This document shows, piece by piece, positions 1 to 4,539 of a DNA stretch of 4,539 nucleotides; within the stretch, counting starts at the first letter, position 1; each line of letters starts with the position of its first letter. The stretch lies in the IMG/VR virus record IMGVR_UViG_2778261274_000003; one strand, written 5' to 3'. This DNA is from a virus (lineage: Duplodnaviria; Heunggongvirae; Uroviricota; Caudoviricetes). The translations under genes were made by a program, and so were the position numbers. The notes beneath the pieces were generated by a model, which made no database searches, was not told where the DNA came from, and was given only the letters and a program-made list of their open reading frames with translations.

Positions 1-56
1 ACACTGAATCTCCCGTCCAAAAGCGCAAATCATGCCATGCAGGCCAGAAACGGCCA

Positions 57-82
57 TTATTTAAAACCTCGGTTTACAGGAA
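57..82. repeat. 26-bp serine-invertase crossover site (gix/cix/hix-like), left boundary of the invertible segment
   Basis: Sequence TTATTTAAAACC-TC-GGTTTACAGGAA is two imperfect inverted 12-bp half-sites around a 2-bp core (69-70). Its reverse-complement partner is at about 2736-2761, sharing the 12-bp block ACCTCGGTTTAC. It closely matches the Gin/Hin-family crossover-site consensus as I recall it. Confidence 0.8.
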
Positions 83-943
83 ACGGTAAACAGGGCTGGT
101 AACGCCGTGCAAAAAAATGGCGATACCTTGTCCGGTGGGCTTACTTTTGAAAATGACTCAATCCTTGCCTGGATTCGAAATACTGACTGGGCGAAGATTG
201 GATTTAAAAATGATGCCGATGGTGACACTGATTCATACATGTGGTTTGAAACAGGCGACAACGGCAATGAATATTTCAAATGGAGAAGCCGCCAGAGCAC
301 CACAACAAAAGACCTGATGACGCTGAAATGGGATGCACTAAATATTCTTGTTAATGCTGTCATTAATGGCAGTCTTGGAGTTGGTTCGACGAATGCGTTA
401 GGTGGTAGCTCTATTGTTCTTGGTGATAATGACACCGGATTTAAACAGAATGGAGACGGTATTCTGGATGTTTATGCTAATAGTCAGCGTGTATTCCGCT
501 TTCAGAATGGAGTGGCTATTGCTTTTAAAAATATTCAGGCCGGGGATGGTAAAAAATTCACGCTATCCAGCTCCAACAACTCCACAAAGAATGCAACGTT
601 TAATTTATGGGGTGCTTCAACCCGTCCAGTAGTTGCAGAGTTAGGCGATGAGGCAGGATGGCATTTCTATAGCCAGCGAAATACAGATAACTCGGTAATA
701 TTTTCTGTTAACGGTCAGATACAGCCCAGCAACTGGGGGAATTTTGATTCACGCTATGTAAAAGATGTTCGCCTGGGTACGCGTGTTGTTCAATTGATGG
801 CGCGTGGTGGTCGTTATGAAAAAGCCGGACACGCAATTACCGGATTAAGAATCATTGGTGAAGTAGATGGCGATGATGAAGCCATCTTCAGACCAATACA
901 AAAATACATCAATGGCACATGGTATAACGTCGCACAGGTGTAA
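71..943 (+). CDS. Silent alternative tail-fibre C-terminal cassette (receptor-binding region, P2 gpH-like); no start codon of its own
   Basis: Open frame from the crossover site to TAA at 941-943. An in-frame TAA at 62-64, inside the outer half-site, closes it upstream. It ends ...RPIQKYINGTWYNVAQV and is followed 3 nt later by a cognate Tfa gene. The ORF-track start at 107 is a GTG inside this frame and is probably not a real start. Confidence 0.8.
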   Translation, partial: GLQETVNRAGNAVQKNGDTLSGGLTFENDSILAWIRNTDWAKIGFKNDADGDTDSYMWFETGDNGNEYFKWRSRQSTTTKDLMTLKWDALNILVNAVINGSLGVGSTNALGGSSIVLGDNDTGFKQNGDGILDVYANSQRVFRFQNGVAIAFKNIQAGDGKKFTLSSSNNSTKNATFNLWGASTRPVVAELGDEAGWHFYSQRNTDNSVIFSVNGQIQPSNWGNFDSRYVKDVRLGTRVVQLMARGGRYEKAGHAITGLRIIGEVDGDDEAIFRPIQKYINGTWYNVAQV

Positions 944-946
944 ATT

Positions 947-1474
947 ATGCAGCATTTAAAAAATATTAAGTCCGGAAATCCAAAAACAAAAGAACAATAT
1001 CAGCTAACAAAGAATTTTGATGTTATCTGGTTATGGTCCGAAGACGGTAAAAACTGGTATGAGGAAGTAAATAACTTTCAGGACGACACCATAAAGATTG
1101 TATACGACGAAAATAATATTATTGTTGCCATAACCAAAGATGCCTCAACGCTTAATCCCGAAGGCTTTAGTGTCGTTGAGATTCCAGATATAACAGCCAA
1201 TCGTCGTGCCGATGATTCAGGGAAGTGGATGTTTAAGGACGGAACTGTGGTTAAGCGGATTTATACAGCAGACGAACAGCAACAACAGGCCGAATCACAA
1301 AAGGTCGCGTTGCTTTCTGAAGCTGAAAGCGTTATTCAGCCACTGGAACGCGCTGTCAGGCTGAATATGGCGACGGATGAGGAACGCACACGACTGGAGT
1401 CATGGGAACGCTACAGCGTTCTGGTCAGCCGTGTGGATACAGCAAATCCCGAATGGCCACAAAAGCCTGAGTAA
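947..1474 (+). CDS. Tail-fibre assembly chaperone (Tfa), 175 aa, P2 gpG / Mu U-like
   Basis: ATG at 947 with AGGTG about 8 nt upstream. The N-terminus [22 protein letters not shown]...DGKNWYEE is the conserved Tfa N-domain. The 175-aa length matches P2 gpG as I recall it. It sits directly after the fibre cassette stop. Confidence 0.85.
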
Positions 1475-1479
1475 AAATT

Positions 1480-1499
1480 AAGGCCCGATATCGGGCCTT
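1480..1499. terminator. Bidirectional intrinsic terminator (20-bp perfect palindrome) between the convergent Tfa genes
   Basis: AAGGCCCGATATCGGGCCTT is a perfect palindrome with a GC-rich 6-bp stem. T-rich tracts follow on both strands (TTCTCTCATTC on plus, TTAATTTTTAC on minus). It lies in the 28-bp gap between the stops at 1474 and 1503. Confidence 0.6.
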
Positions 1500-1502
1500 C
1501 TC

Positions 1503-2036
1503 TCATTCTGGTTGTTCGGGAAACGTTACTGGCAGGCTGGAGGTGTCTGTAGATTCGACTTTCTGCGCAAAGAGCATCCACTCGGTTAATTTCTGCTTAT
1601 TCTCGTCGGAAATGATGCCCAGCCGTAGCTGTGAGTCCCATAGCTGGGTTTTATCCCTGACAAGTTGCAACAGGCTTTGCTTTTCATTTTCCGCTTGTTG
1701 TCTCTGCTCTTCCTCGGTATAAGTTCGCTTTATCACTACGCCATCTTTGAACATCCATTTCCCCGAAATATCAGCCCGGCGATTTGCTGTAATATCAGGT
1801 AATTCAACGACGCTTGCGCCTTCCGGATTAATTGCTGAAACATCCTTTTCAATACAAATAATAACGCCGTTATGGTCATAGACCATTTTCAAAGTGTCTG
1901 GCTGGAAATTCTTTTGTTCCTCATACCAGTTTTTTCCATCATCTGAATAAAGCCATTTGATGTTAAATTGCTTTGTTAGCTGGTATTGCTCTTTTGTTTT
2001 AGGGTTGCCAGCAGTAATGTTTTTTAAGTGCATCAT
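1503..2036 (-). CDS. Tail-fibre assembly chaperone (Tfa), 176-177 aa, cognate to the currently expressed fibre C-terminus
   Basis: ATG-ATG start at 2036/2033 with GGGGAG about 10 nt upstream, 2 nt after the fibre stop. The N-terminus [22 protein letters not shown]...DGKNWYEE is paralogous to the plus-strand Tfa, and the C-terminal third diverges. Confidence 0.85.
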   Translation of the reverse strand: MMHLKNITAGNPKTKEQYQLTKQFNIKWLYSDDGKNWYEEQKNFQPDTLKMVYDHNGVIICIEKDVSAINPEGASVVELPDITANRRADISGKWMFKDGVVIKRTYTEEEQRQQAENEKQSLLQLVRDKTQLWDSQLRLGIISDENKQKLTEWMLFAQKVESTDTSSLPVTFPEQPE

Positions 2037-2038
2037 CG

Positions 2039-3877
2039 TTAAATACTCCCCGCGTTATACCACGTCCCATTAATGCAATACTGAATTGGCCTTGCCTGTG
2101 TTGTATCAATTAATTCATCACGGTTTCCGTTAACTGAACCCGTAACGACATAACCTGACCTGTCAGACCAGCCGGGACCATTCCATGTCTGAACAGATGA
2201 CAGACCGCCAAGGCGAATACCTGTAATAAACCTTGAGTTACATTCTGCCTGCGTATATGCACCAACATCTCCCGCTGAAGGTTTTCGTGTCGTGGTATAG
2301 AAATCTGACCAACCTAATTCAAACCCATAACCATCACGAGCCGACCTGTAGGAAATGCCACCATTTTTATAATTCACACGGAATTGTACGGCAGGACAGC
2401 TACCAGCATTTATATTAAAGTGAAGAATTAATACAGATGCACCACCAATCAGGGCGTTATATGCACCACTATCCCAATTCCATCCAACGGATGTATCACC
2501 ATTAACAGTATTACCTGTTTGTCGGAGTGCAAATGCATTGACATTTTTGGCACTAATTGAAATATCGCTAGAACCATCAAAACCAACTCCAGCAATTTTT
2601 CGTGCTGTTTTCAGCTTTGTTGCAGTAGCGGCATTGCCGGACAGTTCCCCAGAAAGGCCACCGCTGAATGTTTGTCGATTGGTCCAGGTATTCGCTGTAC
2701 TGAGTAACGGTATTTTCTCCCCGCTTGTGCCGAGTTCTCGTAAACCGAGGTATTCGATAACGGCGGCAACGGTCGATTTCGCAAGAATATCCCGCCCGAC
2801 TTTTGTCAGAGTTGCCAGGCTGGCGACATCATTCCCCGTAAAATACGGAAACCTGTCTGCCGCAGTAGCAAGCCCGGCCAGCGCCGTCAGGGTGGCATCT
2901 TTCGGTTGCTTACCCGCAAGCGCGTTAGTCATGGTGGTCGCAAAATTCGGGTCGTTGCCCAGCGCCGCAGCCAGCTCGTTCAGCGTGTTCAGTGCATCAG
3001 GTGACGAATCTACAAGGGCGGCAATCGCAGCCATAACGAAAGCCGTGCTTGCGATTTGGGTATTATTCGTTCCCTGTCGCGCAGTTGGTGTTGTTGGCGT
3101 TCCGGTCAGCGCCGGGCTGTTTAATGGGGCTTTCTTATTTGTTTCATCCATTACTGCCTTAACCGCTTTCGATGTCGCGGCCAGTGTTTCAGACGTGCTG
3201 TTGGTGGCACTACTGAGCTGGACAATCCCTTTTTGTGCCGTCGTGGCGTCCTGAGCGGTATATTTTGCGTTAGCAAGATCATACGCGGCCTTTACCGCTT
3301 TTGGTGTTGCGGCGAGCGTTTCAGAGGTGCTGTTGGTGGCACTACTGAGCTGGACAAGACCTTTTCGCGCTGTAGTGGCGTCCTGTGCGGTATATTTCCC
3401 GTTAGCAAGGTCATAGGCTGCCTTGACCGCTTTCGGCGTTGCGGCCAGTGCTTCAGACGTGCTGTTGGTGGCGCTACTGAGTTGAACAAAGCCTTTTGCG
3501 GTCAGCGAGGCGTCCGGGTGACGTCGTGACTGTTCATGTTCTTTCAGTTTGTCATTCACGTAATCCACTGTGGCCATAACCATGGTGTTATCCACGGTAA
3601 GCGCCACGGTGGCAGTGCTGGATACGGTCAGAATGGTGCGAAATGTTTGTGCACGTCCGGATCCTTCGGCAACGGCTGGCTTGTAACTTTCGGCAGTATT
3701 GCCCACCGCGATCAAATCGCCGTGCTCATCAAATACACCAATTTCCCGGATCCAGAATCCGCCCGTTTCAGGAGGAATAACCAGCTCCGCAATAATGCGG
3801 TTCTGATGTGTTGCGTCCAGGATGACGCGATTAACAGTATGTCGCCACACCTCATGCACCAGACGGGTCTGCTTCAC
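2039..3877 (-). CDS. Tail-fibre protein, 612 aa as currently assembled (constant N-terminal shaft plus invertible C-terminal receptor-binding domain); apparently 5'-truncated
   Basis: Long ORF with a 132-bp tandem repeat region in the shaft. The crossover site is embedded in frame (…AAVIEYLGLRELGTSGEK…). The C-terminal domain contains GELSGNAATATKLKTARK and ends RPIQYCINGTWYNAGSI, typical of lambda Stf / Mu S / P2 H fibres. The start is GTG with no recognisable Shine-Dalgarno, and an in-frame stop lies 5 codons upstream. Confidence 0.85.
   Translation of the reverse strand: MKQTRLVHEVWRHTVNRVILDATHQNRIIAELVIPPETGGFWIREIGVFDEHGDLIAVGNTAESYKPAVAEGSGRAQTFRTILTVSSTATVALTVDNTMVMATVDYVNDKLKEHEQSRRHPDASLTAKGFVQLSSATNSTSEALAATPKAVKAAYDLANGKYTAQDATTARKGLVQLSSATNSTSETLAATPKAVKAAYDLANAKYTAQDATTAQKGIVQLSSATNSTSETLAATSKAVKAVMDETNKKAPLNSPALTGTPTTPTARQGTNNTQIASTAFVMAAIAALVDSSPDALNTLNELAAALGNDPNFATTMTNALAGKQPKDATLTALAGLATAADRFPYFTGNDVASLATLTKVGRDILAKSTVAAVIEYLGLRELGTSGEKIPLLSTANTWTNRQTFSGGLSGELSGNAATATKLKTARKIAGVGFDGSSDISISAKNVNAFALRQTGNTVNGDTSVGWNWDSGAYNALIGGASVLILHFNINAGSCPAVQFRVNYKNGGISYRSARDGYGFELGWSDFYTTTRKPSAGDVGAYTQAECNSRFITGIRLGGLSSVQTWNGPGWSDRSGYVVTGSVNGNRDELIDTTQARPIQYCINGTWYNAGSI
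2736..2761. repeat. 26-bp serine-invertase crossover site (gix/cix/hix-like), right boundary, embedded in the fibre coding sequence
   Basis: Plus strand TTCTCGTAAACC-GA-GGTATTCGATAA; its reverse complement TTATCGAATACC-TC-GGTTTACGAGAA is the inverted partner of 57-82 with the same TC core. It encodes VIEYLGLRE. Coordinates are +/-1 bp because of the frame discrepancy at line boundary 2700/2701. Confidence 0.8.
3152..3496 (-). repeat. In-frame tandem array (about 2.6 copies) of a 132-bp / 44-aa repeat in the fibre shaft
   Basis: Protein repeats KG[FLI]VQLSSATNSTSE[AT]LAATPKAVKAAYDLAN[GA]KYTAQDATTA[RQ]. The DNA block TCAGA(C/G)GTGCTGTTGGTGGC(A/G)CTACTGAG recurs at plus-strand 3189, 3321 and 3453, exactly 132 bp apart. 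Confidence 0.85.
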
Positions 3878-3885
3878 GCAGGGAA

Positions 3886-4206
3886 TCAGTTTTCAGCATG
3901 GCTGTTGTCCTCGTTGTTCAGTCGTTGCAGTCTGCGCTGCTCCAGTAATTCAATGGCCCGTTTATCCGCGTTACAGGTTTCCAGTGCATCCAGAAGGCGG
4001 TCGCCCCATATACCGAGATTTCCCCATGTGGGAGTATCAGGGAAGGGGGGAGGCATTACCGGTATGGTCAGCGTCTGCGGTATAAGCCGGACTGACGGCG
4101 CTGGCCGTGGCGCGTTCTGCGTGCCTGCGCAACCTGTCAGTAAAACGAGCGTCAGGCAAAGCGTGGGCGCATTCATCTTTTGCAATATCGTTGCGTAGCT
4201 GTTCAC
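3886..4206 (-). CDS. o-spanin (Rz1-like outer-membrane lipoprotein), overlapping the i-spanin gene
   Basis: Lipobox L-T-G-C after a hydrophobic stretch (…TLCLTLVLLTGCAG), then a proline-rich segment (APRPAPSVRLIPQTLTIPVMPPPFPDTPT). It starts inside the i-spanin gene in another frame and runs 150 nt past its stop. The GTG at 4206 has GGAGAG upstream; an alternative ATG is at 4176. Confidence 0.65.
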   Translation of the reverse strand: MNSYATILQKMNAPTLCLTLVLLTGCAGTQNAPRPAPSVRLIPQTLTIPVMPPPFPDTPTWGNLGIWGDRLLDALETCNADKRAIELLEQRRLQRLNNEDNSHAEN

Positions 4207-4444
4207 GTCTGGCCTCTCCGTCCTGATTGCGTTGCTGATTTTCCGCGCGGAGTTGTGCCAGCACCTGCTGCATATCCTGTACCCCGGCGCTGATGATATT
4301 CAGGGTGTCGACGGTACTTTTCAGGGTGCTGGCCTGCGCTTCGTTTCTGGCGTTCTCCCGGCCCAGTGACCACGACAGACGCATGGATGCTCCCCAGGCG
4401 GCAATCAGAAGAAAAGCGACGCCCAGCGTGGGCCAGAGCTTCAT
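4037..4444 (-). CDS. i-spanin (Rz-like inner-membrane spanin), about 135 aa
   Basis: Start at ATG 4444 gives an N-terminal transmembrane segment MKLWPTLGVAFLLIAAWGASM followed by charged, coiled-coil-like sequence. The ATG overlaps the upstream gene stop (ATGA), with GGAG about 11 nt upstream. The ORF-track extension to 4513 overlaps the upstream gene frame and reads as non-protein-like. Confidence 0.6.
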   Translation of the reverse strand: MKLWPTLGVAFLLIAAWGASMRLSWSLGRENARNEAQASTLKSTVDTLNIISAGVQDMQQVLAQLRAENQQRNQDGEARREQLRNDIAKDECAHALPDARFTDRLRRHAERATASAVSPAYTADADHTGNASPLP

Positions 4445-4539
4445 GCCGGATAAACTCCGTGCGGTAACTGAAAATGCGGTCCGTCTTTCAGGGTCTTCCA
4501 GTCGCCGCCCCATTCCACCGGAATATTCAGTTCCCGGCT
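4441..4539 (-). CDS. 3' end of the upstream lysis gene, probably an endolysin (partial; continues beyond the right edge)
   Basis: Open frame ending …SRELNIPVEWGGDWKTLKDGPHFQLPHGVYPA* with its TGA overlapping the i-spanin ATG. Its position immediately before the spanin pair is where endolysins sit. The WGGDW…D.PHFQ tail recalls LAS/M15-type peptidase endolysins, but that is from memory only. Confidence 0.4.
   Translation of the reverse strand, partial: SRELNIPVEWGGDWKTLKDGPHFQLPHGVYPA

Follow-up and report, generated by a model that had tools for sequence, protein, structure and literature searches.

The stretch of DNA analysed here (4,539 nt, hereafter the window) belongs to the IMG/VR virus record IMGVR_UViG_2778261274_000003 (Caudoviricetes) and carries a segment of ~2.68 kb with two alternative tail-fibre tips, bracketed by two inverted 26-bp recombination sites, followed by the constant part of a P2 H-like tail-fibre gene and the end of a phage lysis cassette. 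In an initial annotation made from the sequence alone, this arrangement had been read as a tail-fibre switch by site-specific DNA inversion, with a fibre gene adjacent to the lysis genes. Based on the comparisons described below, the window is very probably a fragment of a P2-like (P88/Xuanwuvirus-like) prophage of Escherichia coli type with a Gin/PinB-type invertible segment, the switch of which has become a relic after a deletion.

An inverted-repeat search of the window revealed arms at 53-82 and 2735-2764, which contain the two crossover sites. The left, gix/bix-like site (57-82, minus strand, core at 69-70) reads TTCCTGTAAACC GA GGTTTTAAATAA as reverse complement, and the right site (2735-2760, plus strand, core at 2747-2748) reads TTCTCGTAAACC GA GGTATTCGATAA and encodes the residues ..IEYLGL.. 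within the fibre frame. The two 26-mers are identical at 21 of 26 positions. On the plus strand the cores are TC at 69-70 and GA at 2747-2748, and are thus identical and inverted. An identical asymmetric core in both sites is required for religation after a rotation of 180 degrees. In a scan with the degenerate consensus of the two sites, in which up to three mismatches were allowed (<=3), only 57-82 and 2735-2760 matched in the window, and 200 shuffles of it gave 0 matches. With just these two sites in the window, a multi-site shufflon is ruled out. The pair of inverted sites with identical TC cores that had been noticed initially was therefore recovered by repeat search and consensus scan alike; the position given for the left site holds, and the right site, placed at 2736-2761, was one nucleotide out of register.

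Comparison with a published site table and with the Mu and P1 sites taken from their records assigns both sites to the Din family. A difference of 1 nt separates the left site from bixR, and one of 2 nt separates it from Mu gix. The outer half of the right site (GGTATTCGATAA) equals the outer half of bixL, and its inner half is TTCTCG compared to TTCCTG in bixL. In the table, bix and gix have a GA core and hix, cix and pix an AA core; the sites of the window are nearest to bixL/bixR of the Shigella B segment (pinB), followed by gix (PMC3241671). As in gix and bix, the asymmetric dinucleotide GA/TC is common to both sites.

The bracketed segment contains two convergent modules, each composed of a fibre C-terminus and its own Tfa chaperone, as had been proposed; Pfam matches (PF21446 and twice PF02413) and the homologies of the S' tip agree with this description. 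The silent alternative module (65-943, plus strand, Sv type) matches PF21446 (1.8e-11) and is open over 292 codons. It has no start of its own, as the GTG at 107 is a mechanical start of the open reading frame (ORF) only, and it is closed by an in-frame TAA at 62-64 in the outer half of the left site. Relative to Mu Sv and P1 Sv, this silent tip shows a mosaic pattern, with identities of 46% and 55%, respectively. Its chaperone (947-1474, plus strand, Mu U type; PF02413, 2.5e-36) shares 97% identity with Mu U and 96% with P1 U. On the other side, the fibre C-terminal module that is now in frame with the constant part (2039-2746, minus strand, S' type, 235 aa) shows 89% and 88% identity to the Mu and P1 S' tips over its last 165 aa, whereas its first 64 aa resemble the start of P1 Sv (80% identity). 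It is accompanied by a chaperone of Mu U' type (1503-2036, minus strand; PF02413, 4.8e-36) with 97% identity to Mu U' and 96% to P1 U'. Because of these homologies to U, U', S' and Sv, the present orientation corresponds to Mu G(-). Between the convergent chaperone genes lies a G+C-rich, terminator-like hairpin (1480-1499) with a T-run on the minus strand, which is a putative terminator on the basis of its consensus match. An Rfam search of the window gave 0 matches, and a promoter scan found none above shuffle expectation.

The layout is that of a fibre switch, with a constant 5' part outside the segment and two 3' tips in the same codon phase, each with a Caudo_TAP chaperone. Reverse-complementing 69..2748 in silico changed the fibre ORF from 612 to 667 aa, of which the first 379 aa are common to both forms. 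The junction now reads ..VIEYLGL|RELGTSGEK.. and becomes ..VIEYLGL|QETVNRAGN.. after inversion. Most of what had been claimed for the segment was thus confirmed: one module is fused in frame to the constant part and the other is start-less and closed by a stop, the codon phase is the same at both junctions, and the inverted fusion is open and in frame on the exact sequence, its computed length of 667 aa being close to the earlier estimate of ~666 aa. The G+C content rises from 43.5% in the invertible segment (57-2760) to 54.8% in the constant part of the fibre gene and 57.6% in the lysis genes; in its composition, the cassette is foreign to the host prophage.

Outside the left site, positions 1-56 (minus strand) represent a spacer and 5' leader of an invertase gene and are 100% identical to positions 6001-6056 of the corresponding locus of E. 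coli O145:H28 (L001). Positions 1-2 are the first two bases of the GTG start codon, read leftward, and the rest of the gene lies outside the window. In the O145:H28 locus, a coding sequence annotated as 'recombinase family protein' (5403-6002, minus strand) is located beside the left site, and an invertase starting at the equivalent of window position 2 adjoins this site in every relative examined. The protein of the relatives has 199 aa with Resolvase and HTH_7 domains; its identity amounts to 85% with Gin and 71.5% with Cin. Over the first 150 nt, the invertase gene of the O145:H28 locus is identical to Mu gin at 148 of 150 positions, and the P1 record annotates an enhancer at the equivalent position. 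In Mu and P1, the Fis-dependent enhancer is located in the 5' part of the invertase gene. The expectation of a serine invertase in the flanking sequence was hence borne out in all relatives examined, and the window itself contributes 2 nt of its start codon.

That the segment can invert is seen in related genomes. The E. coli strains 32F4 and 33E (L014 and L015) come from calf and farm samples in Switzerland; they are near-isogenic, and their chromosomes measure 5,288,962 and 5,288,964 bp. Compared directly, their loci differ at 1,968 positions over 19,874 bp; once the equivalent of window 69..2748 is inverted in one of them, 0 mismatches remain over the same 19,874 bp. The inner half-sites are swapped between the two strains, as expected from a crossover in the common GTAAACCGAGGT stretch. 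Among complete genomes, 69 match the 3,874-nt span in its present orientation in one place and 63 match the construct inverted in silico; in these 63 genomes the module that is silent in the window is joined to the constant part. Opposite orientations also occur in other close relatives, namely UTI89 compared to NU14 and IHE3034, and O145:H28 RM12581 compared to O145 RM11626-C1. The intact fibres of the relatives have 661 aa or 716 aa in the two orientations. Both orientations, with exchange within the sites, are accordingly present among the relatives, and neither a single orientation combined with the lack of an invertase nor an out-of-frame fusion, either of which would have spoken against inversion, was encountered there. 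The near-isogenic pair, the 69 and 63 genomes and the Gin-like invertase beside the left site together support the proposed mechanism class of fibre inversion by a serine invertase. In the literature, inversion in P2-like prophages of the enteropathogenic E. coli (EPEC) strain E2348/69 was demonstrated by sequencing and polymerase chain reaction (PMC4272514), and invertase and inversion were noted at a fibre hotspot of P2-like phages (bioRxiv 10.1101/2024.10.15.618418); the paper describing P88 does not mention inversion (PMC5285337).

With 98-99.9% identity, positions 1-3874 correspond to a locus in many complete E. coli chromosomes, including those of O145:H28, UTI89 and SE11. The relatives annotate it as recombinase, fibre tip, two fibre assembly proteins and tail fibre protein, and it is annotated in more than 100 complete E. 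coli genomes. On one side, these relatives carry the genes for holin, M15 endolysin, lysB/lysC, R, S, V, W, J, I, H and tfa, and on the other side those for the invertase, gpU, tape measure, tube and sheath. The closest sequenced phages are the P2-like Escherichia phages 503458 and 520873, the P88/Xuanwuvirus group and Citrobacter phage Shae_phiSM. The K-12 fibre loci of e14, Rac and Qin were considered as an identity for the window and ruled out, as the DNA matches P2-like prophages. Fibre switches of this class have been known since the 1980s. The pairing of such a switch with a P2 H/G-like cassette had been regarded as worth documenting; it is already documented and common, with the locus in more than 100 genomes and inversion shown in the P2-like prophages of EPEC (PMC4272514), and the mechanism, sites and proteins fall within the known family.

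The constant part of the P2 H-like tail-fibre gene (2761-3874, minus strand) is truncated at its 5' end and equals residues 51-422 of the 661-aa intact protein. PF12571, the N-terminal fibre domain, is matched only from profile position 47 of 150, at ORF residue 2, and the intact homologues of 32F4 and 33E begin 50 codons earlier with MSTTTRKF... PF03406 is matched three times in the constant part, which contains three tandem shaft repeats of 132 nt (44 aa) at 3156-3551; the second and third copies are 86% and 64% identical to the first. These repeats are the most divergent stretch among the relatives, with 92% identity to the locus of strain 2017-19-1CC (L016) compared to 98-99% elsewhere, a pattern that suggests repeat-driven recombination.

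At 3863-3874, the window departs from all intact relatives. Every match to positions 1-3874 stops at 3874, and every match to the lysis end begins at 3863. In two independent intact references, the O145:H28 and 2017-19-1CC loci, the two junction points are 3,571 bp apart, and this is the length of the missing DNA. Its loss takes away fibre codons 1-50 and the complete genes I, J, W, V and S, and leaves only the first 10 codons of R. The junction ends share GCTT perfectly (4 bp) and ACGGGTC..GCTT imperfectly (12/14), and a match with such a microhomology is the usual signature of an illegitimate deletion. A remnant of the tail-completion gene R (3852-3899, minus strand) encodes MLKTDSLREA (10 native codons) and DPSGA before a stop. 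As 3,571 is not a multiple of three, the remnant is out of frame with the fibre ORF, and an in-frame R-H fusion protein is therefore ruled out. The GTG at 3877, with which the 612-aa ORF 'starts', consists of gene R sequence.

The remaining part of the window is taken up by lysis genes. Two spanin genes of P2 type, lysC (3886-4083, minus strand; PF23793) and lysB (4037-4444, minus strand; PF10828, DUF2570), overlap each other and are supported by the annotation of relatives, and the end of the M15 endolysin gene (4441-4539, minus strand) runs off the window. A perfect 16-nt inverted repeat connects the constant region of the fibre gene (2875-2890, CGGCCAGCGCCGTCAG) with lysB (4092-4107, CTGACGGCGCTGGCCG). 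Both arms are kept in intact relatives at a distance of ~4.8 kb, and a rough estimate of chance occurrence is ~0.002 per 4.5-kb window. No function of this repeat is evident, and it may be a coincidence of Ala/Leu-rich, G+C-rich coding sequence.

Both flanks of the junction are 97.8-100% identical to P2-like prophages with intact late-gene synteny, an order that is interrupted in the window. The window appears, from these alignments, to be a deleted derivative of a P2-like prophage and not an intact member of the group. Since the native start and codons 1-50 are lost, the fusion to R is out of frame and the baseplate genes are missing, the 612-aa and 667-aa products are not expected to be working fibres and are probably truncated pseudogene products of the 661-aa and 716-aa proteins. 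The earlier proposal of fibres of 612 and ~666 aa can thus not be upheld, and the position of the fibre next to the lysis cassette turns out to be the scar of the 3,571-bp deletion and not an architecture. Elsewhere, the fibre region shows no damage, with 2 mismatches in 3,874 nt compared to the O145:H28 locus, which argues for a recent deletion.

Searches for the junction in other sequences were negative. It was spanned by no record in megablast searches of complete E. coli genomes, phages and plasmids, in which alignments break at 3863-3874; a junction 30-mer was absent from genome_contigs and metagenome_contigs and a 22-mer from viral_contigs. Exact-protein look-ups with the 612-aa ORF (with V- or M-start) and with a 606-aa alternative start returned no identical protein, and those with LysB and the silent Sv protein led only to intact P2-like or Mu-like loci. 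The closest relative is a different one on each side of the junction. The fibre side (1-3874) has 2 mismatches compared to O145:H28 and 70 compared to strain 2017-19-1CC, whereas the lysis side (3863-4539, 677 nt) has 0 mismatches compared to 2017-19-1CC and 13 compared to O145:H28.

Several of these observations weigh against the interpretation as a relic switch in a deleted P2-like prophage. The deletion junction rests on a single sequence and was found in no other public sequence scanned. Its two sides best match different prophage lineages, which leaves room for a recombinant or an artefactual join. The evidence for inversion comes from relatives and not from the source genome itself, and the invertase gene is absent from the window apart from 2 nt of its start codon. 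Lastly, that the two tips differ in host range is extrapolated from Mu and P1. Regarding the junction, a mosaic prophage with a lineage switch within the deleted DNA is the simplest reading, and recombination between two co-resident prophages could be an alternative.

Of the competing explanations, the one that survives best is that the repeats are fossils, with the invertase lost or inactive and the orientation frozen, as in the defective pinF of Shigella flexneri. We regard this as rather unlikely. The prophage is already decaying, as the deletion indicates, relatives carry insertion sequence (IS) elements in the fibre gene (H1, H23; L025), and the window ends at the start codon of the invertase, all of which would be in line with such a state; however, both sites are intact with identical cores, the 56-nt leader is the same as in relatives with a full-length invertase, and the 99.9% identity of the fibre region to those relatives would make any decay recent.

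It is less probable still that the junction is a chimeric assembly or artificial join of two P2-like prophages, in which case the cassette would belong to an ordinary intact prophage. The change at the junction from an O145:H28-like fibre side to a lysis side of another lineage (0 compared to 13 mismatches in 677 nt) would fit an artefact, as would the absence of the junction from the collections scanned and the fact that genomes with two P2-like prophages are common (L004/L005, L008/L009). Assemblers, however, join at long common k-mers and not at 4 perfect bases or at 12/14 imperfect ones, and the microhomology pattern is typical of a true illegitimate deletion. Moreover, P2-like prophages are mosaic, and the change of lineage may just as well have lain within the deleted 3.6 kb.

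That the remnant is kept for a purpose is very improbable. Two versions of this idea can be envisaged. In the first, the two tips would form a reservoir of receptor-binding modules, from which incoming P2-, Mu- and P1-like phages could pick up tips by recombination; this idea derives from the finding that P2-like and Mu-like prophages have the identical cassette and that their homology stops at the crossover sites. In the second, a fibre lacking its first 50 residues (delta-N50) would be made by translational reinitiation behind the 15-codon R' peptide and set free at lysis. The deletion places the start-less cassette of tip and chaperone directly behind the lysis genes, in the P_O late operon.

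Almost no credence can be given to an intact, working switch with a fibre truly located behind the lysis cassette, a novel architecture with fibres of 612 and 667 aa: the ORF is open from the GTG at 3877 in the present orientation and also when inverted, and the fibre shows no other damage (2 mismatches in 3,874 nt compared to an intact relative), but the GTG is built from gene R sequence at the junction, homologues start 50 codons earlier, the match to PF12571 begins only at profile position 47 of 150, R retains 10 codons and lies out of frame, the baseplate genes found between lysC and H in every relative are missing, and the adjacency occurs in no phage, plasmid or genome record searched.

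The favoured interpretation of a deleted P2-like prophage with a relic switch implies the following sequence of events. In the intact relatives, dimers of the serine invertase would bind both 26-bp sites and bring them together with an enhancer that lies at the 5' end of the invertase gene and is occupied by Fis. The invertase would then cut both strands at the central GA/TC with a stagger of 2 nt, and rotation by 180 degrees and religation on supercoiled DNA would flip the ~2.68 kb between the cores. This would exchange the C-terminus of the fibre after ..VIEYLGL, yielding an S'-type tip of 235 aa or an S-type tip of 290 aa, and, downstream, the cognate chaperone (U' or U). The resulting fibres of 661 and 716 aa presumably differ in receptor specificity, like those of Mu in its G(+) and G(-) orientations. 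The chemistry of Fis and the enhancer is deduced from what is established for Gin, Hin and Cin. In the copy studied here, an illegitimate deletion of 3,571 bp would have fused codon 10 of R, just after lysC, to fibre codon 51, and would also have removed the start of the P_V operon and the baseplate-binding N-terminus of the fibre. If the neighbouring invertase is intact, the DNA of this copy may still flip, without a working fibre or virion. The e14 P segment (pinE), a fibre inversion switch that still flips in a defective K-12 prophage (PMC4272514), may be the best precedent for such a fate, although it differs in its pix sites (core AA), its smaller segment and its different fibre.

Among the known systems, the Shigella B segment with pinB (D00660; Tominaga, Ikemizu and Enomoto 1991, J Bacteriol 173:4079) has the nearest sites of the Din-family members listed, with a GA core, and shares the G-like organisation with genes of S, U, U' and S' type, without necessarily being the same segment; this comparison is based on the site table of PMC3241671 and on notes in the P1 record. 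A difference is that the constant fibre part of the window is cut short by the deletion. The constant region outside the B segment reportedly differs from that of Mu. The G segment of Mu (Gin) resembles the window in that a constant part is followed by Sv-U and U'-S'v between inverted 26-bp sites with GA core, and in that the invertase lies immediately outside and is transcribed away from the segment. Over most of the segment, the DNA identity to the Mu G segment and the P1/P7 C segment amounts to ~91%. In Mu, the constant part is Sc and the two sites are identical to each other, whereas the window has a constant part of P2 H type (PF12571, PF03406 repeats) and two sites that coincide at 21 of 26 positions. 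Its Sv-type tip shares only 46% identity with Mu Sv, and the element that hosts the segment is a P2-like prophage instead of a transposable phage. The C segment of P1/P7 (Cin) follows the same switch logic; P1 Sv matches the 64 aa that follow the crossover with 80% identity, both chaperones reach 96%, and the 132-nt shaft repeats resemble the 'element a1' of P1. It differs in the core of its cix sites (AA/TT compared to GA/TC), in the size of the segment, which measures 4.2 kb and has inverted repeats of 0.6 kb, and in Cin, which is 71.5% identical to the invertase of the relatives. The same element as in the window, with 98-99.9% identity over 1-3874 and in either orientation, is found in P88/Xuanwuvirus, phage 503458, the EPEC E2348/69 prophages, UTI89 and O145:H28. 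Compared to these P2-like relatives, the 3,571-bp deletion, with its junction of lysC/R' and fibre codon 51, is peculiar to the copy in the window.

The segment is not confined to P2-like prophages. A silent tip protein of 278 aa is found in identical form in Mu-like prophages with Com/Mom and Mu baseplate genes (L020, L022, L024, L026), in which the DNA of the invertase leader and the whole segment is ~94-97% identical to the window. The homology of these Mu-like prophages to the window stops at 2767, the outer edge of the right site, and the phages P884B11 and Shae_phiSM match exactly 53-2764. Judging from these boundaries, the unit of invertase and segment seems to behave as a module that is exchanged between phage types, with borders at the crossover sites.

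Five other P2-like prophages with the same LysB (L003, L004, L005, L007, L010) possess multi-cassette fibre loci, in which three to five short tip ORFs with PF07484 (Collar) occur in both orientations beside a Resolvase gene. These loci are probably shufflon-like systems of multiple inversion. Two of them (L004 and L005) are prophage copies within one genome and show different cassette arrangements. In some relatives, an IS3- or IS5-family element interrupts the same fibre gene as in the window (H1, H23; L025, 8612-9592), and these insertions are independent evidence of frequent decay of the locus in E. coli chromosomes.

Beyond the correct annotation of the locus, the significance of these findings is slight. 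A deletion scar can go unnoticed when a sequence is read at the level of ORFs, as in a '612-aa fibre' beside the lysis cassette, and the appropriate annotation for the fibre ORFs of the window is that of a pseudogene. Near-isogenic strains with public assemblies offer a clean natural demonstration of the inversion at base-pair resolution, and a unit of invertase and segment that is common to P2-like and Mu-like prophages agrees with the long-held view of a horizontal exchange of fibre cassettes.

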